Part shown: positions 6,166-61,503 of the stretch, piece after piece
Numbering within the stretch: the first letter of the stretch is position 1
Layout of the letters: every line of letters starts with the position of its first letter
Source: a virus
Taxonomy: Duplodnaviria > Heunggongvirae > Uroviricota > Caudoviricetes
Reading direction: 5' to 3' (one strand)
IMG/VR virus record: IMGVR_UViG_3300042286_000208
Span: 70,287-134,286 of that record
DNA: 64,000 bases
Program-made: the position numbers and the translations under genes
The notes under the pieces: generated by a model
Databases searched by the model: none
What the model saw: the letters and a program-made list of their open reading frames with translations, nothing else
Told to the model about the DNA's origin: nothing

Positions 6166-6225
6166 TTATATATTATATTAGTGTAAATGCAAACAAATCT
6201 ATATAAATAATAAGGAGAGTAAATT

Positions 6226-18642: not shown

Positions 18643-19746
18643 ATGAAAAAATTATTCACATTGATGCTAGTTTTACTACTAGCTATTGCATTAACTGGTT
18701 GTGTTCTTGATGAAACTGACCCAGACAACACAGATCCTATAATCAACACACCAATATATACCGTAGCTTTTGACTCAGACGGTGGTAGCGTTGTAGAACC
18801 GTTAACCGTGGAGGAAGGAGATATGATAAGCAGGCCACAAATTCCAATGAAAAAAGGATATATGTTTGTTTATTGATATTCAACAAATCCAGAAACAGAA
18901 TATGATTTTACAACAATAATAACAAACAGCATTACCCTTACAGCTTTATGAGAAGAGATTGATTATTCTTATGATATCAACGATATTCCAGAAGAAATAC
19001 AATACTATTTAGGCGAATCTAGCTTCAATCATATAAGCGATTGGATTATAAGCGATGATAATTTAGATGGAGAAATATCTGAAGAAGAAATACTGTCTGG
19101 TTATGAACTAGTGGATGAGATGTTTGGTGGATATGATCATAATGTAGTTTTAAATTCGGAAGATTTATCTGATATGCAATGGTGTATTGACGGAAGCATG
19201 GATCAAGAATATATTGATGCTGCGATTTATGCCATTTCTTATTTTAATGGTATTGAATGGGTTAACGCATCTTATATTATTGAAGATGATTTTGAAAACA
19301 ATTGCTCTTCTTATAAATTTACATTTACTTGAATAACAGTAGAAGACTTATATGATGAGTTGTATGATTCATATATTTATGAAGGTTATGATGAGGATTT
19401 AGCTCATCAAATGGCTATGGACTTTTCAATGGGAGCTATTGCATTTAATAGTTTGGGATTAGATTATGAAAACGAAGACTATTATCATTACGGAAGTACT
19501 GGTATATATTTTATATTTGAGGCGATGGAAGAGTTAACTCAAACAGAAAAGAACTTTGTTGCTCTACATGAAATGGGGCATAGTTTTGGTCTAGATGATA
19601 TTTATGACATTGAATTTGCTGGATATACTTTAATGTTTGGATCAGCAGAAGGACAAGATGAATTACTTCCTATTTTGAGACCATTTGATTTATGGAATTT
19701 AAACTATATTTATAATAATACCGAAGAGGAAGAAGTAGTAGAATAG
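18643..19746 (+). CDS. lipoprotein with Listeria-Bacteroides (Flg_new) repeat and HExxH zinc-metallopeptidase motif; 4 in-frame TGA
   Basis: Signal peptide plus lipobox LTGC; PIYTVAFDSDGG...GYMFVY(W)YSTNPETEYDFTT...ITLTAL(W) fits the Flg_new repeat with TGA at both invariant Trp positions; HEMGHSFGLDD; listed ORFs 18643, 19111 and 19360 share one frame with no TAA/TAG between. Confidence 0.65.
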
Positions 19747-22682: not shown

Positions 22683-23141
22683 ATGAAAATTATAAACGGA
22701 GATTTATTAAACGTAAAAGAAGGAATAATTTGTCATCAAGTGAATACATATGGAATAATGGGAGCCGGATTGGCACTCAGTTTAAAAAATAAATTTCCAA
22801 ATGTGTATAAACAATATAACGAACATTGTCGTATAAACAAATGTGATGAACGAACTTTACATGGAAGTGTATTATATGTATATGCCACTAATAAACTTAT
22901 AGTTGCAAATGTATTTAGTCAATTATCCTTTGAAACAGACTTATCAAGAAGAACTGATCTGTCTCTAATATGAATGGCTTTTGAAGACATTTTTAAAATA
23001 GCAGATCAAGAGAATCTAAATATATACATACCTTATAAATATGGTTGTGGCCTAGCGGGTGGTGACTGAAATAAAGTGAGTCAAGTATTTTTAGATTTGG
23101 AGAAAAAATTTGGAAAAGAAATTATAGCATTAAAGATATAG
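22683..23141 (+). CDS. macro-domain protein (ADP-ribose binding/processing); in-frame TGA at 22971 and 23067
   Basis: MKIINGDLLNVKEGIICHQVNTYGIMGAGLALSL matches macro-domain N-terminal motifs; GCGLAGGD(W) phosphate-binding loop. Confidence 0.65.
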
Positions 23142-23486: not shown

Positions 23487-25100
23487 ATGCAAGTAGAAGC
23501 TAATAAAGAATTTGTGTTCCTAAACCAACATGTTGGAACTTTCTATACTGGTATAAGTTCCATATTAGGACAGGTGAAGGAATATATACTAAATCAATTT
23601 CCTCAGGAGTTTTTTAAGAGAGTTACAGTAGAAACTGCAGCACCATCTTCACTTACAAATCAGAATATGCAAGATGGTTTAGTAAAAATGTATTATCCTT
23701 TTTTAAATATTGGGGTAAACATTCCTCATGAATATGAAGAAAAAACAACAAGACCTTTATTAGAACGTTCTGAATTATTTATACAGCCTCTTATAAGACA
23801 AAATTACCCAAGAGTCTTGATTGACCCAGATGATAATTTTACTGTAGGTTTTACATATGAATGAGTAAAATCTTCTTATGATTTCAGAATAACGACAAAT
23901 ACCTTTATGAACTCCATAGATGTGATGAACTGAATAAGAACTAAACTTCCACTAAATTTCATAGGATATTTAAATGATTCTCCTTTGGAGTTTGAATTAC
24001 CTCAGAGTATTGTTAAAACAATAGCAGAGCTTCAGGGATATGATTTAATGACAAAGGAAGGTGTTAAAAATCTTGATAGATATTTAATGTCTGTAGGTAG
24101 GATGTTTTCCTTAATTAAAAGAAAAACAAGTGCTACATCAGGTCAAGAGTCCTATTTCATGTCTATAAATTCAGACATTCAAGTATATATAGACAATCTA
24201 GATGCTCCGACTTCAGTTGTTAGAAGTGGTCACACCGAGGGCGAGTATGTTGTAAGTTTTACTGTTACAACAGGAGCATATTTTCCTGTTAGCTATTTAA
24301 TGAAAATAAGAAAAGATTATTTAGTTGCTAGAGTAGAACAAAAAGACTTTCTGGATATCTATGATACACCTAATCAACCACTTGTTGATGGACTGATTTC
24401 AATAGGTGTGGATATTCCTTTAGCGAACAAGAAAGATATTATAAACTACACTACATCGGATGGGAAAAAAGCAATAGGCCACTTGGTTGATGAATGAAGA
24501 TTCGTATACGGGTCCGAACAAACAGAACCACCTATTGTTTCAATCTTCAGCTTAATCGATGATCCAGAATTAAAAAGAGTTCATGCTTATGCAGTAGAAC
24601 ATAGTATTAATCTAGAAAATCTTTTTCATTTTGAAGGATATAAGGTGGCATACACCCAAGATGATATCAATTTTGTCATGAACTATGAAGATTTTGAAAT
24701 CAATATAGAAAACGCTGAATTTAGTGAGGTTTTGATAAGGTTCTATGTAAATAGAGCAACCTATGATGCACTTCAGTTTGCTATGGAGACAGATACTTAT
24801 TACTTTAATAAGAACGTACTGTGTTTCACAGATGTTATTTTATGGGACAGTAAGACAAACATGAATGTCACTAAGAAAGTACAAGTTAATTTCTTTAAAG
24901 ACTCGATTGAAATGTACGATGAAAACCCATTGAAAGCTCTTAAGATCGTAACAAAATATGGTTATGGATATCTCAATATCAAGCCATATGTTGAAGATCC
25001 AGACAGAGAAGATGATGTGATGTTAGTGGTTCTTGGTTATGAGAGCAAGTTGATAGATGGGAAACCTGTTCCAATACTTTATGAAATAATTTTCTCATAA
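23487..25100 (+). CDS. hypothetical 537-aa protein; 3 in-frame TGA (23862, 23931, 24495); possibly virion structural
   Basis: Listed ORFs 23478, 23985 and 24645 share one frame; intervening sequence re-translated with no TAA/TAG. Confidence 0.45.
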
Positions 25101-25165: not shown

Positions 25166-25204
25166 TAAAACTTAAAAATAAAAAACGAGAGGAGCTACAC
25201 AATT

Positions 25205-25732
25205 TTGGATTTATTAAAAAATGAACAAATACCTAGTGGGTTATACACGCTTATTGACATTGACAGAACGAATTTAGGTGTCAAACCAATAGCAAAGATC
25301 AGAGAGATTTGCGAGGAAAACGAATATGATTGTGTTTTAGTCAATTCTAATGTTAGACCTGGTATTGTTAAACTCGAAGAGCGTATGGATGAAAGTAAAA
25401 GAAAATATCAAGAAGCCAAAAACGCGAAAAAGAATAAACAAAAAGAAATAAAATCTAAATCATATACAGTGGATAAACCATTAACCATCCAAGAAAATGA
25501 TTTAAACAGAAAAATGAACGAAGTAATAAATGCAGTTAGAAAGAATTATTCAGTAACTTTTACATTTAAAGCCATGGGAAGATATGCAGATCAACATCAC
25601 TGGAAAGATGTAGTGAAAAGATTTGATACATGTTATGATTATATTATGAGTCATGAAAACATAACTTCTCAAACAAGAAAAGAAAATGAAAATACTATTT
25701 ATGCTGTCTTTAGATATACAACAAAAAAATAA
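25205..25732 (+). CDS. infC: translation initiation factor IF-3
   Basis: N-domain IDIDRTNLGVKPIAKIREICEENEYDCVLVNSNVRPGIVKL ~ IF-3 [42 protein letters not shown]; C-domain KEIKSKS...TFTFKAMGRYADQHHW ~ KEIKFRP...TLRFRGREMAHQQ. Confidence 0.7.
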   Translation: MDLLKNEQIPSGLYTLIDIDRTNLGVKPIAKIREICEENEYDCVLVNSNVRPGIVKLEERMDESKRKYQEAKNAKKNKQKEIKSKSYTVDKPLTIQENDLNRKMNEVINAVRKNYSVTFTFKAMGRYADQHHWKDVVKRFDTCYDYIMSHENITSQTRKENENTIYAVFRYTTKK

Positions 25733-25748: not shown

Positions 25749-26474
25749 ATGGATGAATCAAATAAAAAGGGAACGTATTCATTTGGTATTGAAGTAAACG
25801 GAGACGAAAGAGTTCAATATCTAGAACCGAGTGAGGGACAAGATAAATTTAGAAACAGAATTTACATTAGTAAAGCAAAAACGATGGAAGATATTCTAAA
25901 AGAAGTAGATTCATTTTGTACAAAGTACTATAAGGCAAGTGAACATGGAGTTAGTGCAGATATGATAGATGTCTTCAAAGATTTCAATAAAGTGTATCAC
26001 GCATTAAGAAACCTAACGAAATCCGATGGAAGGAAAATAAGAGGTTTTGAAAAGATAGAAAAATATGGGGATGTTAATATTCCTAAAAGAGGGACCAACA
26101 AAAGTGCCGGTTACGATATCGAATCTATAGAAGATGTTGATATAGAACCAGGAACAACTAAAGTGGTTTTAACTGGATTAAAAGCATATATGATGGATGA
26201 TGAAGTTCTAAAATTATATATAAGATCATCTTTAGCAATAAAAAAAGGCTTGACTTTAGCAAACAACGTAGGTATAATAGATGCAGACTACTATAATAAT
26301 CTGTCTAATGAAGGACATATTATGGTGGCACTAACAAACCTCTCAGATTCAACAGTAACCATCAAAAAAGGTGATAGAGTAGCCCAGGGTATATTTGTTA
26401 AGTATCTAACAGCAGACGATGATCAAACTCTTTCAAGCGAGAGAATTGGTGGAATTGGTAGTACAAATATTTAA
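25749..26474 (+). CDS. dut: dUTP pyrophosphatase
   Basis: dUTPase motifs GYDIESIED, TGLKAYMM, IIDADYYN, C-terminal GGIGSTN; about 90-aa N-terminal extension. Confidence 0.7.
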   Translation: MDESNKKGTYSFGIEVNGDERVQYLEPSEGQDKFRNRIYISKAKTMEDILKEVDSFCTKYYKASEHGVSADMIDVFKDFNKVYHALRNLTKSDGRKIRGFEKIEKYGDVNIPKRGTNKSAGYDIESIEDVDIEPGTTKVVLTGLKAYMMDDEVLKLYIRSSLAIKKGLTLANNVGIIDADYYNNLSNEGHIMVALTNLSDSTVTIKKGDRVAQGIFVKYLTADDDQTLSSERIGGIGSTNI

Positions 26475-27587: not shown

Positions 27588-29546
27588 GTGATTGAAGTTT
27601 TGTACAATAAATATCAAAAAACGAAGGCAGTAAAAGAGCCCTTCAATAAAGAACTATTGTATATTAGAGATGACTATCAGATTTATACGCTGTTAGACTC
27701 TATATTTAAACAGTACGAAAATGATCCTAGAGTAATAGAAGTAAGAACCTACTGGGAAGACGATGAGCCAATGAAGCAATATCGTACTAGAAGCAGACGT
27801 GTTGAAAAAACAAACATTAATGTTTTTAGATATGAGATTGATATTTGGATTGTCAAAGAAGATACTACTGAAGATATAAAAAATAAAGCTTTAGCTAAAT
27901 CTCGCAGACGTAAAAAATCTGAGAAAAATAAAGAATATGTTTTCAGAAAAGTATTTGATAGACATAGTAATATTAAAATAAAATATGATGAGTCAAAGTA
28001 TAAAAAGTATACCGTATATGGCAAACTATTCATGCCTAAACTTGTAAATAATCTGTTCTATTTGATTGAAGGAAGTAGATATTTCACAAGAATGCAGATT
28101 GTGGATAAAATTGTTTATCCTGTTGACCAAAATCATAATAAGAAAATTAAAGCTGTAAATTACAAAAACGAAAGATCTGGTGAAAGAAGCCTATCTTTAA
28201 CAACTCGGTTGCCAAAAATGCAACTAAGTATGTCAAATAGTTTAATTTATGAATTTACGGATATGGATACTGATGAGGCATACTTCGCACCATACTTCAA
28301 CTTATTATTATTTAATAAGAATCAAAATATAATTCAAATATTATTAACTATGTACGCATTCAATATGATAGTTGAAGAGTTTGGGTTAAATGAACCAACT
28401 AGCAATATTTCTATAACCGACGTATACGATGATGAGAATAGACTCATATCAAGAGGACATAGAAACTTAAGAGATACATATGACTCAATGCTACAGGAAT
28501 TAAATACATTCCTTGGAACAAACGTGGTTGTTACAGATGAGGATTATAGTGTAGAGGGTTATCTAAATCTCAGACTGCAATATAAAGAATTTCTTGGACC
28601 TTATGTTAAAGTAGAGAAAGAAGAATTTGAGAACAATGTATTAACTAAAACATTGATATCAGGTCTTCAAAAAATGTTTGAGTCTTATTGTGAGATATTA
28701 ACTTTCAGAGAAACAGACAACTTAAACAAAATGGATAAGAGAAGTCTTGAAGAATTAGGTGGTTCAAAAATTACTGTCAAGGAATTAGAAAACAGTAGAA
28801 TTGATGAGGTTGGTTTTAAATATCATACAATAGACGAGCAAAAAGTCGTTCTAAATGAAGACATCTTTAGAAATCCAGCCTTATTAGTCCATATGTTTGG
28901 TGGAATTATTTTCAAGAAGAATGACTATGTTGAAAGATTGAATAGAACCTTCTTGATGTTCTTATCTATGGAAAGATTAAATGATGAGAACTTGCTAGAC
29001 GAATATGTTATTGACAAGGATGAAGATCCTAATTTAATGACATTTCTTAAATTCTTAATTGTGAACTTTAATGAAATTAAAAAGAGCAATACAAGCAATC
29101 TTTATAATAAGAGAATCAGGGTTTCTGAGAATGTCATCGCACCTATTCGTGTTTTAACATCTCAGGTCTTATTCGCTTTAGTTAAAGAAAATTATTTAGA
29201 TTATGACAGAGTTAGACAGATATTTAATCCTGTTGTAAGTAATAAGAACATGCTAATTAAAGATATTCTTAAAAATGACTTGATTCTATACGACAACAGT
29301 ACTAATGACTCTATAACAAACCATTTTACTTCATTGAAATATACTTTAGCTGGTAACGGTGGGTTGAATTCTAAGAGAATTCCATTCAAATATCGAAGAA
29401 TTGATCCTTCTTATCTGGGCAACTTGTCGCTGGTTAGTTCTAGTGCAACAAATCCAGGTATCACTGGAACAATCATTCCTTTTGCTAAAATAATACTCAA
29501 TGAAAAAACAAGCTCGTTTGAATTTCATCGTTCAAACAATAACTAA
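27588..29546 (+). CDS. multisubunit RNAP beta subunit, N-terminal fragment
   Basis: MPKLVNNLFYLIEGSRYFTRMQIV ~ beta [25 protein letters not shown]; C-terminal YLGNLSLVSSSATNPGITGTIIPFAKI ~ HYGRVCPIETPEGPNIGLI; true TAA stop. Confidence 0.7.
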   Translation: MIEVLYNKYQKTKAVKEPFNKELLYIRDDYQIYTLLDSIFKQYENDPRVIEVRTYWEDDEPMKQYRTRSRRVEKTNINVFRYEIDIWIVKEDTTEDIKNKALAKSRRRKKSEKNKEYVFRKVFDRHSNIKIKYDESKYKKYTVYGKLFMPKLVNNLFYLIEGSRYFTRMQIVDKIVYPVDQNHNKKIKAVNYKNERSGERSLSLTTRLPKMQLSMSNSLIYEFTDMDTDEAYFAPYFNLLLFNKNQNIIQILLTMYAFNMIVEEFGLNEPTSNISITDVYDDENRLISRGHRNLRDTYDSMLQELNTFLGTNVVVTDEDYSVEGYLNLRLQYKEFLGPYVKVEKEEFENNVLTKTLISGLQKMFESYCEILTFRETDNLNKMDKRSLEELGGSKITVKELENSRIDEVGFKYHTIDEQKVVLNEDIFRNPALLVHMFGGIIFKKNDYVERLNRTFLMFLSMERLNDENLLDEYVIDKDEDPNLMTFLKFLIVNFNEIKKSNTSNLYNKRIRVSENVIAPIRVLTSQVLFALVKENYLDYDRVRQIFNPVVSNKNMLIKDILKNDLILYDNSTNDSITNHFTSLKYTLAGNGGLNSKRIPFKYRRIDPSYLGNLSLVSSSATNPGITGTIIPFAKIILNEKTSSFEFHRSNNN

Positions 29547-29610
29547 TGCTTTAAAAAAATTATATATTATAAAACAGTAGTAATAGTCAATTATAATCTG
29601 ATGTATTACT

Positions 29611-29638
29611 TGAAAGAGCCGCTTTTTCTCTGGCTCTT
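29611..29638 (+). other. hairpin aaagagcc-(11 nt)-ggctcttt immediately upstream of the tRNA
   Basis: 8-bp inverted repeat between RNAP beta-N stop and tRNA. Confidence 0.35.
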
Positions 29639-29645
29639 TACTGTT

Positions 29646-29722
29646 GGACCCTTAGCTCAGTTGGTCAGAGCTCCCGGCTCATAACCGGGTGGTCGAAGGT
29701 TCGAGCCCTTCAGGGTCCACCA
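29646..29722 (+). tRNA. tRNA with anticodon CAT (Met, fMet or Ile2), CCA encoded
   Basis: Acceptor stem ggaccct/agggtcc, D-arm agctcagttggtcagagc, anticodon stem cccgg/ccggg with loop ctCATaa, T-arm gaagg-ttcgagc-ccttc, discriminator a, CCA. Confidence 0.85.
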
Positions 29723-30175
29723 TGAATAATATCAATAATCCTGTAGCCGTACACTACAGAGGACACGTTGCCTGACTAGCGTCCACAGGTTAGCAAGTAT
29801 AAGAGGATGTAGGGCTGGAGCGCATAAGTAGGCCACTTTGTTAGTCGCTCAAAACGGAAGATATCGGGTTTTACCCTAGAGCTCTTCGAGTATAAGAAAC
29901 GTAGATTGTTGGTATTATTGATGGTATTATTAATCATCAAGGTTTTAATCCTGGTCTATCAGGTTAAAATAAGGCGAATAGCCTTCATAGCGTGCACCTC
30001 CTCTAAATATAGCCGCCACAATAAATAGAATGAGTGGTGGCTAACTTATTAAAATCAAATATGTTAAATAGAACCGTTACTTACTTCATTCTTACAGTAA
30101 AAGGATCAGGTGTTGCTGGGAAACCAGTAACCTGAAATATTAGTACGGTCAATATAATAAAAAGACTAGTTAATA
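29723..30175 (-). ncRNA. GC-richer structured non-coding region (3' part of the intron-like element, or an independent RNA)
   Basis: No ORF over 57 aa on either strand even allowing TGA; about 42% GC versus about 28% in neighbours; many short stems. Confidence 0.35.
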
Positions 30176-31099
30176 CTAGTCTTTTTTTATTTCTTTTTTT
30201 AGAATGTTTTCTATGTTTTTAAATTCTGTATATGGTATTCTGATAAGTTTTATATTATTATCTTTACAATATTTTGTTTTTATAGAGTCTTTTATTTTTT
30301 GTTTTTTTAGTTTATTAATTGCTTTTTTTTCATCATTAAACACCCATGGTTTATAATGTTGCATTCCATCATATTCTATACATGTGTTACTTTTAGGTAA
30401 ATAAAAATCAAATCTTAAAAGCTCTTTATTCTTACATTCATCAAATGTATATTCTTCTATATAAGATATATGTTTACTTTCTAAATATGATTTTACTTTT
30501 AACTCACCTTTAGAATTCCTACAAGAGGGACATCCCCCACCACGTAAATGATTGTCTGGAGTTGTATTTCAGGGACCGTGTTTACTACATATTATTTTAA
30601 CTTTTGTCCGAGCGTTTATATAATCAACTTTTGAATAGTCATATTTATTTCCATGAATTTTAATAGCTTTTTCTACAAATTCATCAGTAGATGGTTTTTT
30701 AACATTAGAACATTCAGGACAACCATGTCCTCCTAAGTGTGAATTTGGAGATTGAAGAAAATCACCATGCTCATTACATGTAATTATTACTTTTTCTACT
30801 GCTTTTTTGTATATTGTTTTAGAGTAATCATATTTATTATTATGTATAATATTAGATTTTTCTATAAAATCATTTGTGTTTAATGTTCTTTTTTTAGATC
30901 TAGATTTTAAACTACATTTAGGACAGCCATGACCCTTTAAATGAACTGATGCTCTTTGATAAAACTCTCCATGTTCTGGGCAAATAATCAATATTTCTTT
31001 ATGATATGTTGTTATTTCAGATTTAGAATAGTCATACTTATCATTGTGTATTTCTTTAAATTTGTTGATATAAAAAGAGGTATCATGTTTTTTTGGCAT
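30176..31099 (-). CDS. homing-endonuclease-like protein: three tandem Cys-His zinc-ribbon repeats plus C-terminal Vsr/DUF559-like PD-(D/E)XK nuclease; in-frame TGA at 30569
   Basis: Repeat NKYDYSK-x-Y...IIC.EHG.F...HL.GHGCP.CS occurs three times; C-terminal LRFDFYLPKSNTCIEYDGMQHY fits DUF559/Vsr core; RBS aaaggagg; listed ORFs 30569-31099 and 30176-30364 join across TGA. Confidence 0.55.
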
Positions 31100-31269
31100 A
31101 TAATACCTCCTTTCATCTAGCTGTTATCTTTGTTATCTCTTATTTCTCCTATTTTTCGACCTAATTCAATTAGTAATTTGTTTGTGAACATTAAATAAAA
31201 TATATCCCGATATTATTGAACAGGTTCTCACACCCGTCTGATTTATACTAAAGATAAACCATTTCTTAT

Positions 31270-31499
31270 ACTTTCATATAAGCGTAGACTATATCATCAT
31301 CTCTTTCGAGAGCAGCTTACTTCGGGAAATGAGATTTCTTTCCCTACTCCCTTACGGGATAGTCGTTGGGGCTGGAACTTAGAAAGATCCCTGCCTGCTG
31401 ATTGCCCAATCTCTCAACTTTTCAAACCATGGCTTCGACTCACGTCTCGCAGTGGTATGAGAGCTCTAAGGGGTTTCCAGCATATCAAGCTGTTTTAAC
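31270..31499 (-). ncRNA. group I intron-like catalytic core (P4/P7 elements) on the minus strand
   Basis: Minus-strand CAACGACUAU (plus 31359-31368) matches R element GUUCAACGACUA; GAUAUAGUC (plus 31287-31295) matches S element AAGAUAUAGUCC; the GACUA/UAGUC halves pair as P7; CAAUCAGCAGG (plus 31390-31404) resembles Q element AAUCCGCAGC. Confidence 0.5.
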
Positions 31500-34400
31500 C
31501 TATAATCTCACAATTATAGGGCACTGTTTTAATCGTCAATGCGTCATTCTGGAAAACACACCGGTAGGTGTTAACACAGATTCAATTTCTTCATTAGGTC
31601 TATATTCAGAGTATGGGGCTTCTTTATCATCTAAAACATTAGATATTACACCCTTTAAAGCAGTATCATAACTTAATTTATCACCGATACCAAGAGGAAC
31701 GTTTGATTGAATATAATATTTAATCATTACGCCTTCATAACCTTCGCCATCTTCTTTTGCAGTTAAGCTCTGTTTCTCAGGTCGTTTTTGTTTTAGAAGG
31801 TATGAATTATTTTCCCCAACAAATTTCAATTTCTTTTCATATTTTCCACCGAAATCATTTATTAATTTTACAAGTGAAGGGTTTAAGTCTTCCTTATCAA
31901 CATTATAGAACACTTCTATTTCTTTAATTACCCCGTGGTAGTTAGGATATTTTGTAGATGATGGAAGAATATCTTCAACATCACCATATTTATCTGTGAA
32001 GCTATTTGTTAAGAATCCTTCAATACTGTTATCACCGAAATCGTCATATTCTATAACAGGAGTCGTTTCGTCAACATGATCGCCTATTTTGCTCATACTC
32101 TTAATCTTAGTTGTAGGTGTTAATCTTACCATTTCTGCAATTACAACTCTACTCATGCTCTTCTTACTTAGATTTTTGGTTATTATGGTACTATCTTCGA
32201 AAGAGTTATCTATAGGCGCAATTGCCATTTTAGCTAAGGTACCAACAAGCAACTCAACTTTTCCGTCATCAAATGCCTTAAAGAATACATCATTATAGGC
32301 GATGATATCGTCTTTTTTAAACATGTCTTTTTCTCTTAGTCTCATAATCAGCTTATTAGGTGTGTAGAACGCATTGGCGGAGTTTCTTATAAATGTAGTT
32401 GATAGATCGATGAAATCTTTGGTTCCATCTAAATACTCTAATTCAACTATGTTTGTATCCCTGTTAAAGGTTTTTACAACACCATCTTTTTTTGCTTTAA
32501 ATATGAAATCACTACTTAGAAGGCCTGGAACCACTTGTTCAGCTCCTGTGCTCCATAGTCTAACAGAACCTTTATTAAGAGGCATGTTATGTTTAAATTG
32601 TCCAATTGTCATGGATTGTCTTGATGCATCAGCATGTCTTGATAAGAATGGAGAAAGTAATTCGGAAGCAGATAACATTCTAGTATCTGGTGTATTTTCA
32701 ATGTCTTCTATCTCAGAAATATAACCTCTGATACCTTTAATATGTGGTTGATATGTAAGAGATCTGGTAATACCTGATGATCCACCAAAAGCAGTAGCAC
32801 CAGCAGAATATACAGAAAGTTTATTATTATTAAACTCACGCGTAGCTTGTGAGAATGATGCAGCTTTTTCAAGACCCATGAACCCTTTTTGAGAGGTTCT
32901 GGAATATGTCTCAAGTTCCAACACAGGACTTAATGCAGAATAAGTATTTACAGAAGATATCTTAAGAAGATTGAATATAACAGCATTTTCATTTACATCA
33001 AATGTGTTTCTAGTATTCCCTCTAAGATATCCATTCAGATAATCAATATAGGATTTTATTAGTATTTGATTTAGCATACCTGCTATTTGTTCATAGTTTC
33101 GTAATCTGTAGTTTAATACATTACCAAGCTGTCTATAGCTATTATCTGCTAAAAGAGTATTACAATATAATAGTAAATCTAGAATATTACTTGGTATTTT
33201 TTGTTCGTGTAGTATTTCTTGAGTTATCGGATCGACTAAAACGTTTAGTGTTATCTTCATTGTGTTCTTAAAGTGGGTTTTAGTAGATGTAGATATTTTT
33301 TTAATTAAACCTATTCATTCATCATAAGGTTCTGATGTATTGAAGGAACTTAGGTTAAAGTCATGAGGCTTAGCAAAATATAAACCATTCATAAGAACTT
33401 GATTTTCTATAGTTTCTTTGTAATATAGGTATACGTCTTTGAACTTAATTTCAACATATCCTGGTCTAGGATCTCTATCTTTTGATATTGTGTATGCTAT
33501 TTTATATCTATTCATTGTATTTTTCAAACCATATATCATACCAAGAATAAGAATTAGCGGATAATGAGACCCAGCTATTTTAACTTTACTATATCCCATC
33601 TTATTACCAGTATCAGGAAGATCCTCGAATCTTGTATCATAGATATCCCTATACAAGAATTCAGATAAAGTTTCACTGATAAGTGTGTCCGTCTTATAGT
33701 CTGTCGAGTATACTTTATGTTTGTAAATGAATAAAAGTCTATTGGATCCATCAATAAGTTTGTATCCTATTGGTATAAGATCTTCAGGATATTTCCAATA
33801 TTTTGTAGGAACATCGTTTAATTTTAATTCAGTTGAAATATCATCATAGTTAAAGTTTAATGAGTATCCATTTTTTTCTATAGAGTATATGTTTTTACAA
33901 ACTTCACTATATTCTATATTCTTGATGTTGTTTTCTGAATATGATATTAGATTATCCCCATATTTAACCTTTACTTTTGGATCATTCTTTTTGTTATCTA
34001 TTAGTTTTAATACTTGACTTATAGTTTTAGACAAATAACCCTTTTCTCTATCAATAAATAGAATAGAGTAGTTTGTTGTTATTTTGACTGAATCTGGTGC
34101 AGTTTTGGTCACTGGCAAGAAAGCTAATTGATTGTCTACTGTTCATCTGTTACCATTCAAATAAAGGAAATGATTGTCGATTATTTTTGGAATATTAACG
34201 CTGAATCTTATATCTTTATTAGTACCATTGATATTTACTGTGTAAGCCAAATTTAATTTATAGAGTTGATTGTTTGCATTTGAGGTATCCTCAAAATCAA
34301 TCTTCTTCATAGTTAAAGGTAGAATAGAGTTGTTAGATAAACTAGATGTTATATTAATTATATCATCTTTAAATTGTTTATCTATATATTCTTTTGAAAG

Positions 34401-35651
34401 TATTGCGATTGGGGTGTGTGATAATTCTTTTAGTCTTATATCATTAGCAGCTCTTTGATCTATTTGTTCTTCTATAGATGAGTATTTTTCTACATCTACT
34501 TCTGGTAATTTTTTGAATTCATTATATAGAATTTCCATTTCTTCAGCTACATTTTCTTCTGCCTTTAATATGTTTTGTGACTCTTTTTTCTTAAGACCAG
34601 CATATCTTGTAAGATTGGCCTTTATGGTTGGATCCTCTATCAGTTTATCAACTTCAATTTGACCACTGTCTTCTCTTCTCTTTATGTTCTCTACGATGGA
34701 TAAATATATATTGTCTTGTGGATCAGTATTCGGTTCCACTTCAACGTTTTTAATTTTATTCACTTCATAGAATTTTTTAACTACCTCTTCGAATTTAGTT
34801 TCTACAACAATATCTTTAGAATCAAGGGTTTTATCATTGATTGCATCTTCTTCGCTATACACTTCATCTTGTGAAAGAGGCTCTTGTCCTTTACCGCCAA
34901 GCTTGTATAACTTAAAAAGTCTTTGCATATGTTTGCTTTTTAGTTCATTTATGTCAATGTTATCTAGATCAAATTTAATCATAGAGTGAACTTTAGTGTT
35001 ATAAAAAACAACATATTTTATACCTCTGAAGAAGGCTTCTCTTGTTCCTTCGTCATAATTTCAAAAAGCTTTTGTTATTATTGTCGCAGGATCTACTAAG
35101 AATTCTGTATCACCAACAAAACTTCTTTTTCTTACAAGAATGTGGAAATTGTCTACAGACCCATCATAAGGAACAACCAATATATTGTTTAAATACCCTG
35201 CGTTTTCTATAGATTCTTTTAGCATAGTGAAAAGATATTGAGAGATATACTGTGTTGATCTTGGATTTTCTCCTCTTAATTTCTCTACTAATTCTATAGT
35301 CTGTCTTCACTCATTATTAAAATCATATATAAGGTTTTTATTGCTATATGCCAATATATTTTTACGACCTAAATTTATTTTCTTATTTGTTTTTGAGAAT
35401 ATGTCGTTATAATATTCTTTTAGAGGAATAACAACACGTCTTCTTTTCATAGGAGTAATTCTGAATGGTGTATAAATAGATTTGATATTAGCTCCTCTTA
35501 AAAGTTTAGAATTGATAACATCAATCATAGTTTGCTCTTTTAAGCTAGGTATTAAAATCAAATTGTCCTTATTTTTGTTTTGTGTTTCGAAAAATATAGT
35601 CGGATTCTTATAAACAAGACCATTTCTCGCTTTTGAAAGTTTTAAAATCAT
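31500..35651 (-). CDS. multisubunit RNAP beta subunit (second copy, N-terminal plus middle regions, about 1383 aa); 5 in-frame TGA
   Basis: Listed ORFs 35307, 34143, 33315 and 31536 are one frame joined by TGA at 35307, 35061, 34143, 33315 and 31536; motifs IPKIIDNHFLYLNGNR(W)TVDNQ ~ NGTERVIVSQL; DASRQSMTIGQFKHNMPL ~ NDANRALMGSNMQRQAVPL; APIDNSFEDSTII ~ NGYNFEDAI; IGDKLSYDTALKGVISNVL...VLTPTGVFSRMTH ~ GDKMAGRHGNKGVISKI...VLNPLGVPSRM; ends 12 codons later at TAG 31500 with no C-terminal 250 aa. Confidence 0.7.
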
Positions 35652-35672
35652 AGCCGTCACCTACCTATCTCT

Positions 35673-35688
35673 TATAATTAATTATTCA
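35673..35688 (-). promoter_or_regulatory. motif TGAATAATTAATTATA, copy 4 (minus strand), upstream of RNAP beta gene
   Basis: Reverse complement of plus-strand tataattaattattca; 22 nt before ATG 35651. Confidence 0.55.
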
Positions 35689-35719
35689 AAGGCAAAATTA
35701 CCAAAAGAAAGTATATTTA

Positions 35720-35731
35720 TATATATTATAA
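35720..35731 (+). promoter_or_regulatory. class-2 motif TATATATTATAA upstream of 35783
   Basis: One of about 10 intergenic copies of TTATATATTAT(A/T)A, each 45-90 nt before a start codon. Confidence 0.4.
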
Positions 35732-35782
35732 TACTGTAATGAATGATAAGCAATCAAAAAATATGAAGAGGAGAATTAAAAA

Positions 35783-36268
35783 ATGTCAAAAATCATGCTT
35801 AAAAAAGTGTTTATTAATCCGAAAGAAAACTACAGTTTAGTTGATGAATCAAATCCTAACCTTTTCAGAGATGATGAAGGAAATGGATATCTCAATCTAA
35901 ATAATGGAAGTATCAACTTTCAAAAACTTGTTTCCACTTTCATGGTGGATGATCCAAAAGCTGTAAGTCCTATTTGGTACAAAAAGCTCAAGGAATTGGG
36001 CATTAATATCCCTCAGGACGCTGTTGAATTAGAAGTTGAATCTATTGATGAAGAAGAGTATTCTTACAGAGTGAAAGATGGATCTTTTGTAAAAGTTCCT
36101 GCTGAAAAAGTTTTCACTAGTAATGATGGTTTTGTTGCTCTAATTGATGGTATTATCAAGAAACTAAACAAGAGAACTATCAAGAAATACAGTATTTCTG
36201 GTGTCAATGTAGGTAGCGAATACTTCTACAACAAATTACTCGGATTAGAACAAAAAACAAAGAAATAG
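35783..36268 (+). CDS. hypothetical protein
   Basis: 161-aa ORF with RBS gaggagaa. Confidence 0.45.
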   Translation: MSKIMLKKVFINPKENYSLVDESNPNLFRDDEGNGYLNLNNGSINFQKLVSTFMVDDPKAVSPIWYKKLKELGINIPQDAVELEVESIDEEEYSYRVKDGSFVKVPAEKVFTSNDGFVALIDGIIKKLNKRTIKKYSISGVNVGSEYFYNKLLGLEQKTKK

Positions 36269-36274
36269 AAATTG

Positions 36275-36300
36275 GATGGTTATATACCATTCTTTTTTTG
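36275..36300 (+). terminator. terminator hairpin plus T7 tract
   Basis: ggatggtt-atat-accattc followed by tttttttg. Confidence 0.5.
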
Positions 36301-36359: not shown

Positions 36360-39314
36360 ATGAAATATAGATTACCTGGTATTTATCTTGGAAATATATC
36401 TATGGATTTATTCATGGAATATATGTCTAATGAAGAATTGAGCAATCAGACAATCACTAATGATTATTATCAAACAAATAATAGAACTCAAAATGTTAAA
36501 GTATTTAAAGTAGAATTCACTTATAATTCAGTGGATTATAATTTTTATACTTATAATATTCTTGATACAGTAAATATTAGAGAAATAATAAGAACTTATT
36601 TTAGAGATATAATTAGTGACACGCCAGACTATGATCAAAATGTAGATGCTATAACTTTTACAGTTCAGACTGCTGATTTTATAGAGAATCCTGTTTTGTT
36701 CGACACACTGGGACAACCATCTATTTATAGTACTTATATGATAAACGACATCGGTGAATATAAATATATGATATCTGTTGAAGGTGAGTTGAATGAAGAC
36801 CTTAACAATTACACCGATCTAAAACAATATGTTGACTCTTCAGAACTAGAATTAGTTCCTGTAAATATATATGATCTCAGATACGCAACAAAAGATTTAA
36901 TAACAACACTTTACGTTGATAAAGATGTTTTTAACGAATCATCTGTTAATTTAATGGAGTTCGTGCTAGATGTTAACGAAGAAATTCAAGAGGTAAAGGA
37001 AAACGTTCTTTATTTTGGTCGAAAAAGTCTACTTAACTACATAGGGGCTGACGGCCTATTTTATTTTAAAGATAAGTTGGGAGGACTTACGAAGTCTCCT
37101 TATAAAAATGTGATGATGTGGGATATCGAAAATAATAGGAATCTACTAGATCAATCAATACAAATAAAGATGCTCTCTCCTGAAAATTCTAGAAATTTCA
37201 GTGGCATCACTGGTGTTGTAAGAACACAGACGGAAAATAACGATAAAGTAGAATTAAACTTTACTAAATATGATAAGTATAGTATAACTAAACAATTTAA
37301 AGAGGTATCTAGCATACCTGGTGGCGAAGAGGATATTAGATTTGAAGATATTGAGCCAAAAATAATAAATACTATAGAGAATGCAGTAAACCAAACACAT
37401 GTTTTTAATGAAAAAAGCATGATAGTATATACTGATTTAGTAAATACATCAACCCTACCCAAATTTAAAGCTATATATAATTGAAATGTTAATGGTGATA
37501 AGAAATACTATATTTTTGATACAATAAGAGGTAGAGTTCCAGAGTTTAGAAATACCGAATTGGATTCTGATAGTCCCACTTTATGTTTATTAGATGTGTA
37601 CCCAAATCCAAAAATTAAAGTAGAATCAATTGGTTCTAGTAAAAATCATAGATTGATTTATGATGTGCACTATGATTCAGAAAGATATGAACATTTTGTT
37701 TTTAGAACTGTCGTTTTTGATAATAAAACATATTACATAAAACTAGCTGATAGTGAAAATGAATTGACTGGTTATATAATAATGACATCCAACACACCAA
37801 ATGCGACTTATACAACATCAGAAGATTTAATTAATGATTTTTCTTTTTCGGAAATGGGTTTAAATGTTGGTTTGAATGACGTTTATCCCCTTTCTTATGA
37901 CAAGATAAATGGTATTGATACCGTTGTAAAATGAGGGCTGGATATTCAGATAACTCCCGAAGAAAAATTCTCAACAGAACTTAAAAAAATAGAAAACGGT
38001 TCAAATGAGATGTTCTATACATTTATGGATCAAAGCACTCTGGATGGAAAGTTATATTTTAAATTCCCTGTAAAACTAGATATTAATAGTACAGAAAAAA
38101 TAGATAACGTCATGGTTACTATGAGAGCAAAAAAGGTAATATCAGCCAATGATTATGAGTTTGAATCATCTGGCTATTGAACAACAACTTTTACAAGTGA
38201 CTATCTTATAACAATACCCGTGTTCTCAGAGTATAACACAGAAGATACGAAACCATACAATAATATATCTCAACATCTAACTCTGAATAATTTTGAGTGA
38301 GTCGTCTCTGATGAAAATTATTCCAAAAAGTACTATGTTATAAACAAATATGACCAAAGCAAAATATATGAGGTTACTGAAATATTAAGTCATGAAAATT
38401 CTCCTCTGAACCCTTATCCTTACAACAACACATTTTCCAAAATAAACAGCAAACTGAGCACAGGCATAAACGAAAACAACACAAATGAATTTGTTGCGAG
38501 ATTAGGTACTAGCATAACAGTAGATGATCGCGGTGAATTGGTTAACTCTGATATAATGGGAACTGACTTAATAGAAGCACTAACGGATGACTTCAAGAGG
38601 GGCTTCAATAATATATTTTACGGAATAGGAAATTATACCTATAACTACACCCTAGATGAACTAGATGATAAACAAAAGACAAGTTTCCTAAGAGATTCTT
38701 TGGTAAATTTTGATAGTTTGAATAAAATGTTAACAGCTTTCCTGAGATATAATTTCATATCTACAAACGATTATCTATATACAATAGATAAAGACTTTAG
38801 AATGGGATTCTTTACTAAAAAAGAAGACAGAGGAATAAGCTCAAACAATATATTCACAAATTGATTAGCTGCAGTTCCTTTGGGGGAAGTTGACGCTGAT
38901 AACTTCAATACATTACAAAAGATTAAAGAGTACGAAAAATTAACATCAGATGAAGATATATCTAAAAGAGAGAGAATTAACTGAATCAAAAATCACCTAC
39001 TTTACAGCAGAGATAAAAATACAACAACAGGATATGCTTTACAAAGAACAAAAACAACAAATCTAAAAGATATTAACAATAAAGACACGGTTGAACAAGC
39101 ATTTTCAATGTTGATGGATCAGAGATATAATGTGACTAAAGTTATTGGATCTTTTTCGAACACAAACATAAGCAATCTTGTTATAATGGATACAAAAGAG
39201 AAGGATCTTTTTTCAGGATCTCATGAACAAGTAAGATTTATTAACTCAAACCAGAAAATAGACGTCATGGTAAACACTTATTTGGATGGTTTTGTTAAAA
39301 AGGTAGGTGAGTAA
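36360..39314 (+). CDS. large hypothetical protein (984 aa, 6 in-frame TGA); candidate virion structural protein
   Basis: Listed ORFs 36360, 37560, 38538 and 39108 share frame 0; junctions re-translated with TGA at 37482, 37932, 38178, 38298, 38862 and 38982 and no TAA/TAG. Confidence 0.5.
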
Positions 39315-40243: not shown

Positions 40244-40402
40244 ATATATTTATATATTATTAAGTCGAACGGAATAGAATTTTTTTCGTATTAAAAGACT
40301 GAGGCATATTAATGTCTTCGTCTTTTTATGCACAAAAACTAGGAGGATGTGAATAATGAGATTAGATTTAGATAAAAAGATAAAAGAATTGGAGATGATA
40401 TA

Positions 40403-42424
40403 ATGAAAGGAACTTTGATCAAAGTATACAATCACGACGATGAAACAGCTGTAATAGTATATCGTGATGAGAATTTACAGAAAAAGAAGATTGTTAAAAC
40501 AAATATGTTGGTCGATTATTTTCTTTTAAAAGAAGGTAACAGTCCAGATATATTTGTAGAACAAAAAAACACAGTTAGATTCGAAACACAATACAATAAC
40601 TTAGTGAATGATATAGTTGACAATCTAGACGTGGTTGATCCAGTGTTTAAGCAAAAAGCAGACGCCTATCTTAAACTCATTGATATAAATTATCAAGGAG
40701 ATGAGAGACTCAAGAAAAATATATTTAGGTTACCGGGGATATATGGTGCAGATGAACCTTTAGAAAACAGAGCTATTGAATGGTTCTATAATAACTTTGA
40801 AGAGGATATGAATTATAAACCGCACGAATATACAGCGTATTTCGATATAGAAAGTGATTTGATGTTCGATGGTAAAAAGAAAAGAAATGGTGCAATTGAT
40901 TTGATTAACACACCAGATCCGATAAACATCATATCACTATACTATCAAGACAACATGTATGTTTTTGCCTATAATTATGGGACTAGAAATCCATCATTTA
41001 AAGAATTCATAACAAACTTTCCAGAAATGAAGGATAAAATAATACAAAAAGTATATGAGAGAAATAACTCAACTTATGTAAGAAAAGGTAAGACCATCAA
41101 AGGTAAAGAGATAAAATTAGATGATATCAAGTTATATCTGTTCAGTACAGAAAATGAACTTATCAGAGGATTCTTCAATAAGCTTCATGAACTAGACCCC
41201 GATTTTCTTTTTGCTTGGAATGCTTCTTTCGACGTTAGAACTATATTCGGTAGAGCAGAAAAAACACAAAAAGAGATATTAAAGTTAGAGGGAGAAGAAC
41301 ACGGAAAGTATGATGTGCAGAAGTATACAAAATCCTATATATCAGATAGCAAATATTGTACTGACGAAGAAGGAAACTCCTTCCTACCAAACTATTATTA
41401 TTATATTAGTTCTGAAGGGGATTATACTGATGCCAAGAACAGAAGAGACTATTGTGAAATATGTGATGGTATAAACTGGCTAGATCAATTAATCATGCAC
41501 TCTATATTGAATAATAGCGAGGCCAACGATTCAGATGCACTTGATGCAGTAGCAAACGAAATGTTTGATATTGGTAAAATTGAATTTGAAATCGGTGAAA
41601 CAATATTCAATTTAGCTTGGTTGAATTACTTAAAGTTCTTTATATATAACATTCAGGACGTTATGTTGCTGAAAAAGATTGAACAAGAACTTCATAATGC
41701 AACAGAAGTATACGAACTATCGGCACTTTATAAGTGTCCGGCAAAAGATGCCTTCGCACAAACTAAATCAACAAAATCATTTATGTCTTATGAAGCTAAA
41801 AAAATTGGATACGTTTTAAGAAACAACGTAAATGCTTTATACAGCTCTTACAGAGATAGAACTAATGCAGCTAGAAAAGAATTTGACAATTCTTTCGGTA
41901 TGGATGTAAGAAGACAACTTCTAGAAGAAATAACTGGTTCCGATGAAAAACTTTTCAGAGTCATGTTAGATAAAGATAACTTTGGTGGTATTGTTGCCGA
42001 TAGCACTTTAAATACAAATAAAAATGGCATAGAGCTCTATGAGGGCATAAGAAGCAATAAGATATTCGGATCTTCATTCGACAAGGACTATTCATCTCTA
42101 TATCCTTCTACAAAGCATGCATTATCCATTGATGATGATGGTGCTGTGGCTAGATACGTTATATATGATGAAGAAATTCTGAAAAAACAAAGACAACGAG
42201 GTTATGAAAAAGCGTATACTTGGAAATCTAGCTCTAGCTTCAAAAAAGCTGATATTCAACCACACTGGGAATTAACAGATAGTGGTGATATCGAGGATCA
42301 AAATCTAATGATTAGATTGTGTGACTACTTGGCTTCTAAAACATTTTCTAAAATTGGGGAAGATTTTATGTCCTTACCTAATACAACAGAGTTAATAACA
42401 GAATTAATTAAAGGAGGAAAATAA
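40403..42424 (+). CDS. family B DNA polymerase, N-terminal part (3'-5' exonuclease domain through polymerase motif A)
   Basis: Exo I YFDIESD, Exo II AWNASFDVRTI, Exo III YNIQDVMLL, Pol motif A FDKDYSSLYPS; ends at TAA 42422-42424. Confidence 0.75.
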   Translation: MKGTLIKVYNHDDETAVIVYRDENLQKKKIVKTNMLVDYFLLKEGNSPDIFVEQKNTVRFETQYNNLVNDIVDNLDVVDPVFKQKADAYLKLIDINYQGDERLKKNIFRLPGIYGADEPLENRAIEWFYNNFEEDMNYKPHEYTAYFDIESDLMFDGKKKRNGAIDLINTPDPINIISLYYQDNMYVFAYNYGTRNPSFKEFITNFPEMKDKIIQKVYERNNSTYVRKGKTIKGKEIKLDDIKLYLFSTENELIRGFFNKLHELDPDFLFAWNASFDVRTIFGRAEKTQKEILKLEGEEHGKYDVQKYTKSYISDSKYCTDEEGNSFLPNYYYYISSEGDYTDAKNRRDYCEICDGINWLDQLIMHSILNNSEANDSDALDAVANEMFDIGKIEFEIGETIFNLAWLNYLKFFIYNIQDVMLLKKIEQELHNATEVYELSALYKCPAKDAFAQTKSTKSFMSYEAKKIGYVLRNNVNALYSSYRDRTNAARKEFDNSFGMDVRRQLLEEITGSDEKLFRVMLDKDNFGGIVADSTLNTNKNGIELYEGIRSNKIFGSSFDKDYSSLYPSTKHALSIDDDGAVARYVIYDEEILKKQRQRGYEKAYTWKSSSSFKKADIQPHWELTDSGDIEDQNLMIRLCDYLASKTFSKIGEDFMSLPNTTELITELIKGGK

Positions 42425-44427
42425 TGGAAGTCCAAACTTTTAAAGATAAATGAATGAGCGAACAGTTTGATAAAATAAAAGCTGTTGTTGGAAATGATTT
42501 CAGTGATGATCTGATAAGAGATCTACTTAAAAAACACTGGGATAAAAGAAAAGAACCTGCTCACACCTTTATGTTAACAAAAGACTCAGTATCGACATCC
42601 TCAGTTGAGAGCATGATTGATAGATTTCTAAACAGTAATTACATATTGTCTGCTTATGGTGTTATGTATAAACAACCCACCGAACATGTATCTATTTTTA
42701 ACGACGTTATATGGAAAGTAATTAAAGAGCGTAAAGATATTCGAAAATTTATTGCCAAACAACGTAAGGAAGTTGGCGAAGACTTTATGCTTAACCAATT
42801 TACTAGATATAACTCTAAGCAAAAAAACAGAAAGATTGTAGTTAATGCTGCATATGGTGTTATTGCATCATTTATCTCAGTATTCTTCAATAACGGTCCT
42901 CTAATGGCAAGCTCCCAGTGTTCTATTACCAAAACTGGTCAAACTCTGACCACGATCGCGATAAGCAATATCGAGAATTGGTTAGAAAACAATATAAGTT
43001 TCGATAATGTTAGTGATCTTCTAGACTATGTGGTTTGGTGTAAGAAATATTACTGGGAACATAAAGAAGTAAATGAGAAACACTTAGCCAAACTAAAAGA
43101 TGTAACTACCGAATATTTCATAGACTATTTGACATCAAAGTTAAAAGATCCAAAAAAAGTTGATATAAATTATCTGAAATTAGTTTCTCGAAGACTATCT
43201 GATATTGAGATTAAATCTATTTATTATAGAAATAATATACCAGCTATAATCGATCAAGATTATTGGTTTACTATGACTAAACTTATACTAGAATCTAGTG
43301 TAAAAGACAACATACCGGAAGAATTAGAGAACTATAATAGATATATGGCAGAGCTAGACGATTTTGTATTTCATACAACAGCGGTTGATTTCATTCATCC
43401 ACAGAGATATACAAGACAGTTTACTGAAACTAGAGATGCAGCAATCATTTCCGATACAGATTCCGTTTTCATTAGCGTACATAAATACTTAACTGACATT
43501 AAGAAATATTTTCATACAGATGTTATACCAGAAAGAGATTTAGATCTTAAGATTACTAAAATATTCATTCACATTAGTGATAGATATATTAAGTATGTTC
43601 TGGATGAATATCTTGATTTCATTCACGTTTCCGATGAAAGAAAAGGAGACATCAGCATGAAATCTGAGTTTGACTATAGCAAAATATTAGTAGACGGAAA
43701 GAAAACATATGCTGGTTGGAAGATTGGAGAACTATCTATCCCTCTTGGTGATGAGTCAGAAATTGACGTTAAAGGTCTATCAATCAAGAAGTCTACTGTC
43801 GTTAAGCAATTAAGAGAGAGTTTTAGTGATATACTTGAAAACAACGTATTAAATACAAACAGAATAGATACATTGGAAATATTATATAGGTTCGATAAGA
43901 TTGAAAATGATATCAGAACTAATTTACATGCAGGAAATACAACATATTTACAGCCAGCAAGTGTATCTGGTGATGGAGCATACGCTTTTCCAGAGAGAAT
44001 ACCTGCTTGGCGCGGAGTTCAAATATGGAACAATATACATCCTGAACAAACAATAGACTTACCGGGTCGTGTGATGCAAATTAGAATGAAACCGCTTGAT
44101 GACTATAGTTATCTAAGTGAAGAGTATCCTGAAGTCTATGAAAGAATTCAAGATATCTTGAACAACAGGGTAAATCTATTGGGTTCTAAATATGACGGAA
44201 ATTCTAAAATGAAGAGCAATAAACAAAATGTCCTTGATATTATATGTATACCTTATCAATTAGAAAAAATACCTGAGTGGATCATACCTTTAATAGATGT
44301 AGATCTAATTGTAGACAGGCTTATGAAACCAGGTCAATTTATTTTAAACGCCATTGGTGTAAGCACACCAGATGACTATGTGACCAACGTAGTTGACAGA
44401 AAAATTATAAACCAAATTTTGATTTAA
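42424..44427 (+). CDS. family B DNA polymerase, C-terminal part (motifs B and C)
   Basis: Motif B KIVVNAAYGV (KxxxNSxYG), motif C IISDTDSVFI (YGDTDS); ATG 42424 overlaps the upstream stop, RBS aggagg 8 nt upstream; different frame from part 1. Confidence 0.7.
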
Positions 44428-61474: not shown

Positions 61475-61503
61475 TTAAAAGTTAAAAAATAAATAGTATA
61501 GAA

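Follow-up and report, generated by a model that had tools for sequence, protein, structure and literature searches.

A putative virion RNA polymerase N-beta gene with in-frame TGA codons and a group I intron in a phiKZ/AR9-type phage lineage

We analysed a locus on the minus strand (31500-35651) of a 64,000-nucleotide stretch of the Caudoviricetes record IMGVR_UViG_3300042286_000208 (positions 70,287 to 134,286; hereafter the window), and found that it encodes a homologue of the beta subunit of RNA polymerase (RNAP). The locus very probably represents the N-beta subunit of the virion RNAP of a phiKZ/AR9-type jumbo phage, and its expression would need both the removal of an intron and the reading of four UGA codons as tryptophan (Trp). 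We assigned the gene to the virion enzyme because of its full-length homologues, its virion-linked relatives and the separate non-virion RNAP set that is present in the window. The gene model joins 35651-31539 to 31206-31120 and gives a protein of 1400 amino acids (aa).

Reading frame and identity of the gene

Under the bacterial code (code 11), the minus strand at 31500-35660 is broken into four open reading frames (ORFs; 35660-35307, 34982-34143, 34118-33315 and 33260-31536), all of them in the same frame. Taken as one, this frame comprises 1387 codons with five in-frame stops, every one of them a TGA, and then reaches a TAG (31502-31500). The landmarks of exon 1 are the following:

31539-35651, minus strand: exon 1 of the predicted virion-RNAP N-beta gene, 1371 codons, with ATG at 35651-35649 and AGGTAGGTGA just upstream
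35307-35309, minus strand: in-frame TGA no. 1, codon 115 (NNE-W-RQT)
35061-35063, minus strand: in-frame TGA no. 2, codon 197 (KAF-W-NYD)
34143-34145, minus strand: in-frame TGA no. 3, codon 503 (LNGNR-W-TVDNQ, within a conserved beta motif)
33315-33317, minus strand: in-frame TGA no. 4, codon 779 (PYDE-W-IGL)
32190-32207, minus strand: NSFED block (sequence motif)
31647-31685, minus strand: GDKLSYDTALKGV, the beta double-psi-beta-barrel motif (IGDKLSYDTALKGV), both lysines kept at a spacing of 8, with R, H and N replaced
31539-31556, minus strand: FSRMTH motif (sequence motif)
31536-31538, minus strand: fifth in-frame TGA, which makes up the first three bases of the group I intron and is not a sense codon

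No frameshift and no in-frame TAA or TAG was detected in the 1371 codons of exon 1, and the chance of such a run without TAA or TAG in DNA of 30% GC is about e^-86, as estimated from base composition. Exon 1 is colinear from M1 with the related proteins P0001, P0002 and P0003 (see below), as well as with the homologues of phages SA1, LPJP1 and phiR1-37. The first-pass annotation had placed a beta homologue at this position, and the NSFED, IGDKLSYDTALKGV and FSRMTH motifs were all located. It had also described the gene as a second beta in a single chain from the N-terminus to SRM; this stands as regards a paralogue in one chain, but not as regards one ORF under the bacterial code, given that the five in-frame TGA codons, the main oddity of the locus, had been silently read as sense and were not mentioned.

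Close relatives were found by a search of 5.8 billion proteins, where they are called as single chains:

P0001 (locus L005): 89% identity, 1398 aa
P0002 (locus L006): 82% identity, 1396 aa
P0003 (locus L007): 65% identity, 1386 aa

None of 50,697 phage records was matched by megablast with 29500-36300, and scans of the IMG/VR and GTDB genomes (185,579 species genomes) gave no relatives, while a scan of the JGI metagenomes returned a single short contig, which belongs to the L007 lineage. Compared with L005, the window gene had a dN/dS of 0.024 over 1398 codons, and all the TGA-separated segments were under strong purifying selection. The N-beta gene is intact and functional. With this dN/dS value, obtained against an 89%-identical relative, the possibility of a pseudogene, which had been raised from the sequence, is excluded.

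A tblastn search with the last 574 aa matched 300 phage records, the best of which were the Staphylococcus phages SA1, S6 and DC4, the Listeria phage LPJP1 and the Yersinia phage phiR1-37, at about 32% identity (E values of 3e-84 for SA1 and 2e-77 for phiR1-37 g099). SA1 (QPI17140), phiR1-37 (g099) and LPJP1 (QXN67858) each encode the homologue in one gene, with a product of 1393-1436 aa that ends about 25 residues past the match. In every homologue examined, another 25-30 residues follow the (S/A)R(M/K)T motif before the chain ends, and in the window it would end 29 aa after SRMTH once spliced. The record of phiR1-37 annotates g099 as 'phage structural protein', and the DC4 homologue (UFVDC4_00067) was detected by liquid chromatography-mass spectrometry in purified virions (PMC10638138). 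P0001 aligned end to end with phrog_14872 (5e-135) and phrog_3148, both labelled 'RNA polymerase beta subunit' (profile lengths of 1393 and 1424), up to profile positions 1390/1393 and 1422/1424, respectively; Pfam RNA_pol_Rpb2_6 covered just model positions 84-273 of 373 in the same protein.

The window protein thus resembles the N-beta of the phiKZ/AR9-type virion RNAPs (phiKZ set gp178/gp149/gp180/gp80; phiR1-37, DC4, SA1 and LPJP1) in being a single chain of about 1400 aa, colinear throughout, with its end 25-30 aa past SRM and a GDK-x7-K motif without R-H-N. It differs from those of cultured phages in being just about 32% identical to any of them, in the intron after SRMTH and in the need for UGA-to-Trp reading at four codons, whereas the SA1 and LPJP1 homologues have no internal stops under code 11.

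The replacement of R, H and N in the GDK motif, already noticed in the first-pass annotation, proved to be real. Alignment with the homologues indicates a family-wide loss and not an alignment artefact, and the motif reads as follows in other members:

SA1: GDKISFYGACKTV
LPJP1: GDKVTYYTALKTV
P0004: GDKLTFFTALKSI
P0006: GDKLVFGPTGLKGV (one extra residue between the lysines, spacing nine)
P0007: GDKISNYTALKGV
P0008: GDKSCSEFALKGI

The GDK-x7-K pattern without RHGN was common to SA1, LPJP1, P0004, P0007 and P0008. The two retained lysines correspond to K386 and K394, named as conserved in gp71-73 of the phiKZ non-virion enzyme (PMC8287921), and the window's own non-virion C-beta keeps a near-canonical motif (GGKLVGRYGDKGV).

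Profile and tblastn searches found nothing homologous to the final ~250 aa of beta, either beside the gene or anywhere in the 64-kb window, in agreement with what had been reported for the locus, and a tblastn search of the window with the C-terminus of the non-virion C-beta gave a self-match only. The virion RNAP core of phiKZ/AR9-type phages is composed of N-beta, C-beta and three beta-prime pieces, and beta is split at different sites in the virion and non-virion enzymes (PMC7598289). The suggestion that the remainder is encoded elsewhere fits this split architecture and the end points of the homologues, but no C-beta was found in the window. The missing ~250-aa C-terminus is normal for the virion-RNAP N-beta family. 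As a C-beta candidate, the SA1 'beta subunit' gene that lies beside the SA1 N-beta was rejected: it is beta-prime-like by sequence and according to the second annotation column of the DC4 paper (PMC10638138), and it had no match in the window.

The N-beta protein carries beta's share of the active site, including both conserved lysines of GDK...K. By analogy with the relatives, it would assemble with separately encoded C-beta and beta-prime pieces. The RNAP would then be packaged in the virion and transcribe the early genes after injection. The separate non-virion set is represented in the window by three pieces, and the earlier description of the first beta copy as split was correct:

11587-13146: N piece of the non-virion beta-prime
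14242-16299, plus strand: non-virion RNAP C-beta (Pfam Rpb2_6 positions 58-372 of 373, E=6e-22; phrog_3295; 0 TGA, 6 TGG)
27588-29546, plus strand: non-virion RNAP N-beta (0 TGA, 2 TGG; 83% identical to L005)
40376-44427: split DNA polymerase B

The non-virion N-beta had no Pfam or PHROG family match, and its beta identity comes from reading its C-terminal sequence. As in phiKZ/AR9-type genomes, this second, differently split RNAP is accompanied by a split family-B DNA polymerase (last line above), SbcC, SbcD, a DnaB-like helicase and RNase H (core gene list from PMC7598289).

The intron after SRMTH and its surroundings

Just after the SRMTH codons, the gene is interrupted by a 332-nt group I intron with exact borders, predicted to be self-splicing. 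Its removal would join exon 1 to a 29-codon exon 2. The features of this region are the following:

31207-31538, minus strand: group I intron, 332 nt, no ORF; it starts with UGA and ends with G, and exon 1 ends in U
31117-31206, minus strand: exon 2, 29 codons (DIFYLMFTNKLLIELGRKIGEIRDNKDNS) at 31206-31120 and TAG at 31119-31117
30176-31099, minus strand: free-standing homing-endonuclease gene, 307 aa, with zinc-ribbon repeats and a C-terminal nuclease domain
29646-29722, plus strand: tRNA-Met (CAT), the only tRNA in the window

The intron was matched by Rfam RF00028 at 31550-31265 with 60.4 bits (gathering score 50, E=6e-15) in a 500-nt scan. In the Rfam alignment, the end of exon 1 (...GCAU) pairs with intron GUGC in the P1 stem, with a U-G at the exon end, and the last intron base (31207) is G. 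The element is precisely absent from L005, whose adjacent positions 5305 and 5306 align to window 31539 and 31206 at the edges of the two blastn blocks, and the spliced junction SRMTH|DIFYLMF is the same as in the intron-less P0001 and P0002 (SRMTHDIFYLMF / SRMTHDIFYLLF). Exon 2 lies about 330 nt downstream in another frame and matches the C-terminal tails of SA1 and LPJP1 (TDIYLMLFTNKALIELKRK...), while the unspliced frame after SRMTH reads W-RLKQCPIIVRL-stop, unlike any homologue. The stop that had been placed 12 codons after SRMTH is therefore to be reassigned, those codons being intron sequence and the true last 29 codons lying at 31206-31120. Removal of the beta C-terminus by an adjacent intron-like element, another early proposal, does not hold either, given that the intron only separates the last 29 codons and nothing like 250 aa. 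The 'intron-like element' drawn at 29723-31500 does contain the 332-nt group I intron, but it also comprises exon 2, the homing-endonuclease gene, an inverted-repeat insert of about 200 nt and the tRNA-Met.

Both a whole-window Rfam scan at the gathering threshold and an 11-kb scan at E<=1 missed this 60-bit intron; therefore, other introns in the window may be missed as well. L007 carries another group I intron (6210-6478; 49.5 bits, E=1e-11) after TPTG, 8 codons upstream of the window site; the part of the gene that encodes the active-site end of N-beta is a hot-spot for introns.

The endonuclease gene has one in-frame TGA (30571-30569, HGP-W), matching HGEF and HGDF in its sister repeats. 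It was matched by phrog_559 (4e-79), phrog_9084 (homing endonuclease, 6e-31), phrog_7140 (intron-encoded nuclease) and Pfam DUF4379. A homologous DUF723 gene was found at the same place in the intron-less L005 (5484-6608) and none in L007; the endonuclease may target the SRM-coding region in other genomes.

AR9 reportedly has self-splicing group I and group II introns. The locus shares with AR9/PBS1-like phages an interruption in the gene of an RNAP subunit, in a jumbo phage with two RNAPs, and the presence of adjacent endonuclease genes. The window differs from them in that the intron site after SRMTH is not shared even by the 65% relative L007, the intron has no ORF and the endonuclease is free-standing, downstream of exon 2. 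In several Staphylococcus relatives the homologous region was recovered in 2-3 tblastn pieces, and intron mobility has been discussed for the origin of split RNAP genes (PMC7598289).

An Rfam search of 29540-30200 gave the tRNA only, and this tRNA-Met occupies the same locus in L005 and L007. Directly after it we observed a GC-rich (45-50%) segment of about 200 nt (29725-29935) with flanking inverted repeats of about 17 bp (AATAATATCAATAATCC ... GGTATTATTGATGGTATTATT), most of which (29743-29924) is absent from the 83%-identical L005. The segment had no Rfam match, no second copy in the window and unremarkable fold z-scores (-1.1 and -1.4 for 29723-29935), and it looks like a miniature inverted-repeat insertion.

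TGA codons and the genetic code of the lineage

The four in-frame TGA codons of exon 1 are sense codons for Trp, subject to synonymous TGA/TGG turnover; on expression, the four UGA codons would be translated as tryptophan. Five homologous Trp columns have TGA in some of the sequences and TGG in others, and the TGA positions in the DNA of the relatives are partly different:

NNE-W-RQT: TGA in the window, L007 and L008; TGG in L005 and L006
LNGNR-W-TVDNQ: TGA in the window, L005 and L006; TGG in L007 and L008
PYDE-W-IGL: TGA in the window; TGG in L005, L006 and L007
KY-W-KYP: TGA in L005; TGG in the window, L006 and L007
RL-W-STG: TGA in L005; TGG in the window, L006 and L007

The column of TGA no. 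2 is variable, aromatic or hydrophobic, with L, Y and F in the relatives and F and Y in SA1 and LPJP1. When X was placed at the TGA positions of other window genes and solved structures were searched, X aligned to a conserved W of the InlB B-repeat in a lipoprotein (18643-19746) and to a conserved W of 2fg1 and 5m3i in a macro-domain protein (22683-23141). The Trp-containing peptides predicted across TGA sites of the ~160-kDa N-beta are FLYLNGNRWTVDNQLAFLPVTK and ...PYDEWIGLIK.

A code-4 gene model of the window contained about 67 genes, with 31 TGA and 134 TGG Trp codons (TGA 19%). TGA accounted for 25 of the 57 Trp codons (44%) in the genes that start at 17-39.4 kb and for 6 out of 108 (6%) elsewhere (Fisher p=6e-9; per-gene permutation p<1e-4). 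About 25% of the genes have an in-frame TGA (31 TGAs in about 17 genes), among them the virion N-beta, the head-maturation protease, two large proteins of unknown function (984 aa and 537 aa) and the homing endonuclease. The TGA-free genes include the three non-virion RNAP pieces, both DNA polymerase genes, SbcC, SbcD, the DnaB-like helicase and RNase H, among others. No window gene needs TGA as a stop, and each TGA-terminated ORF continues in frame.

No other genes in the window are as heavily recoded as those of the two large proteins, which may belong to the virion. The 984-aa protein (36360-39314, plus strand; 6 TGA and 1 TGG) had no Pfam or PHROG match and is a single gene in L006 (934-3888), while the 537-aa protein (23487-25100, plus strand; 3 TGA and 1 TGG) matched, among the PHROG families, just phrog_21946 (unknown function) and is a single gene in L005 (9664-11277).

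In phiKZ, the non-virion enzyme is produced from early genes and the virion enzyme enters the next infected cell together with the phage DNA (PMC10612078). Because TGA is concentrated in the N-beta, head-protease and large unknown genes and is absent from the non-virion RNAP and replication genes, we favour a phage-driven switch to code 4 in the middle of the infection of a standard-code host, which would confine the synthesis of the virion RNAP to the late phase. The wider proposal, which we rate as evenly poised between right and wrong, is that a two-polymerase phiKZ/AR9-type lineage writes its virion RNAP and other virion genes in a code where UGA is Trp and its non-virion RNAP and replication genes in the standard code, and that the switch gates virion RNAP production.

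The TGA-recoded gut phages of Borges et al. (Jade, ~200 kb; Agate, ~127 kb) resemble the window in the use of TGA as Trp, in a minority of genes being recoded, in TGA not serving as a stop and in low GC. In both, recoding is likewise concentrated in virion-associated genes and avoided in DNA polymerase, SbcCD and DnaB-like genes, although in the window the Dda-like helicase and three repair/nucleotide genes carry TGA. The window differs in having no visible module of suppressor tRNA, release factor 1 (RF1) and tryptophanyl-tRNA synthetase (TrpRS), and the word 'polymerase' has 0 occurrences in the text of Borges et al. The code 4 of Mycoplasma and Spiroplasma shares the reading of UGA as Trp, whereas in the window TGA accounts for the smaller part of the Trp codons (19%) and its use depends on the class of gene. 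Among 10,754 jumbo phage genomes, a 2026 survey reported 385 with alternative codes, two of them under a second alternative code (equated with TGA recoding), and did not mention phiKZ; in the limited literature on recoded phages that we read, no report of stop-codon recoding in phiKZ/AR9-type phages was found.

Several points weigh against our overall reading of the locus. TGA occurs also in genes that are not obviously late (the Dda-like helicase, endonuclease V, the macro-domain gene and an Mre11-like nuclease), so that the early/late partition of TGA genes is imperfect, and the temporal classes are themselves presumed. No suppressor tRNA(UCA), RF1 or TrpRS was found in the 64-kb window (of a genome that is probably >200 kb) or in the L005-L007 contigs, and permissive ARAGORN runs gave only implausible intron-containing calls as suppressor tRNA candidates; in Borges et al., suppressor tRNAs were detected in just 35% of code-4 phage genomes. 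The C-beta partner was not located in the window, and virion packaging and splicing are deduced from homology.

We consider it unlikely that the host itself reads UGA as Trp (a Mycoplasmatota-type code-4 bacterium), with no phage switch and with TGA codons that carry no regulatory meaning. Such a host would be in line with TGA being needed as a stop by no window gene, with the missing suppressor tRNA in the window and the L005-L007 contigs, with the low GC (~30%) and with the hosts of the closest cultured relatives being Bacillota, the phylum to which GTDB assigns the code-4 Mollicutes. At 30% GC, however, TGA should then be preferred throughout, and it makes up only 31 of 165 Trp codons, clustered as described above (44% vs 6%, p=6e-9), with 0 TGA and 12 TGG in the non-virion RNAP pieces and 0 TGA and 16 TGG in the two DNA polymerase genes. 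Furthermore, about 25% of the genes carry TGA, and in Borges et al. 26-71% of genes were recoded in phages of standard-code hosts as opposed to 90% in phages of recoded hosts; the 185,579 species genomes scanned contained no relative. It is very improbable that UGA stands for something other than Trp (glycine as in code 25, or selenocysteine) or is subject to programmed readthrough. Code 25 phages exist, and in distant homologues TGA sites no. 2 and no. 3 are occupied by F/Y or K instead of W, but five columns show TGA in some close relatives and TGG in others, X aligned to conserved W in the InlB B-repeat and macro domains, and glycine was seen at no aligned position; 31 TGAs in about 17 genes are also unlike a selenoprotein pattern, SECIS-like elements not having been searched.

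A decaying pseudogene, with nonsense mutations and a truncated 3' end, has next to no chance of being the explanation, even if code 11 gives four ORFs and the frame seems to end 12 codons past SRMTH: the interruptions are TGA only, with no frameshift, TAA or TAG in 1371 codons, dN/dS is 0.024, the Trp columns that hold TGA in some of four independent contigs hold TGG in others, and the apparent truncation is the group I intron, beyond which exon 2 is conserved. The family is characterised by split beta and beta-prime subunits, and phiKZ gp71-73 has a compound gene name, which could suggest that the TGAs are real stops that split N-beta further into four or five small polypeptides. This is scarcely credible, as TGA positions vary among close relatives and cannot be conserved subunit borders, one TGA lies within the conserved LNGNR-W-TVDNQ, the pieces share one frame with no start codon or ribosome-binding site after the stops, and the standard-code phage homologues are single chains. 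The phage-driven switch to code 4 in a standard-code host remains the reading that we favour.

Other genes of the window and significance of the locus

Three further gene groups were observed in the window. A translation initiation factor IF3-like gene (25169-25732, plus strand; phrog_9787, 4e-7) has no TGA and may have a bearing on how a recoded phage controls translation; its L005 homologue weakly matched PF05198 IF3_N. A reverse-transcriptase-like 'polymerase' ORF (62355-63533, plus strand; phrog_2825, 2e-42; phrog_1423 reverse transcriptase, 1e-9) is preceded by a stretch of about 1.2 kb with little coding (61112-62354), and an Rfam search of 61000-64000 found no group II intron around it. 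Finally, dUTPase-like and guanylate-kinase genes were found at 25749-26474 and 53645-54304 (both plus strand), respectively. Among the nearest cultured relatives, the AR9-like phages (AR9: PMC9209446) and phiR1-37 have deoxyuridine DNA.

The virion RNAP N-beta with its split architecture, the interrupted RNAP genes of such phages and the TGA-to-Trp recoding of phages are each known separately; here all three are combined, in a phiKZ/AR9-type lineage just about 32% identical to any cultured phage. Standard-code annotation turns this essential gene into four fragments and a 'truncated' end, which can be mistaken for a pseudogene or an exotic split. Two different group I intron sites lie within 8 codons of each other, in the best conserved part of the subunit, and a homing endonuclease gene adjoins them; together they offer a compact natural setting in which to study the turnover of introns and endonucleases at a polymerase active-site motif. 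The locus also joins two phenomena that have been studied separately, the self-sufficient transcription of phiKZ-like phages and the use of stop-codon recoding for timing. Should the host have the standard code, progeny would be armed with their early polymerase only after the code switch.

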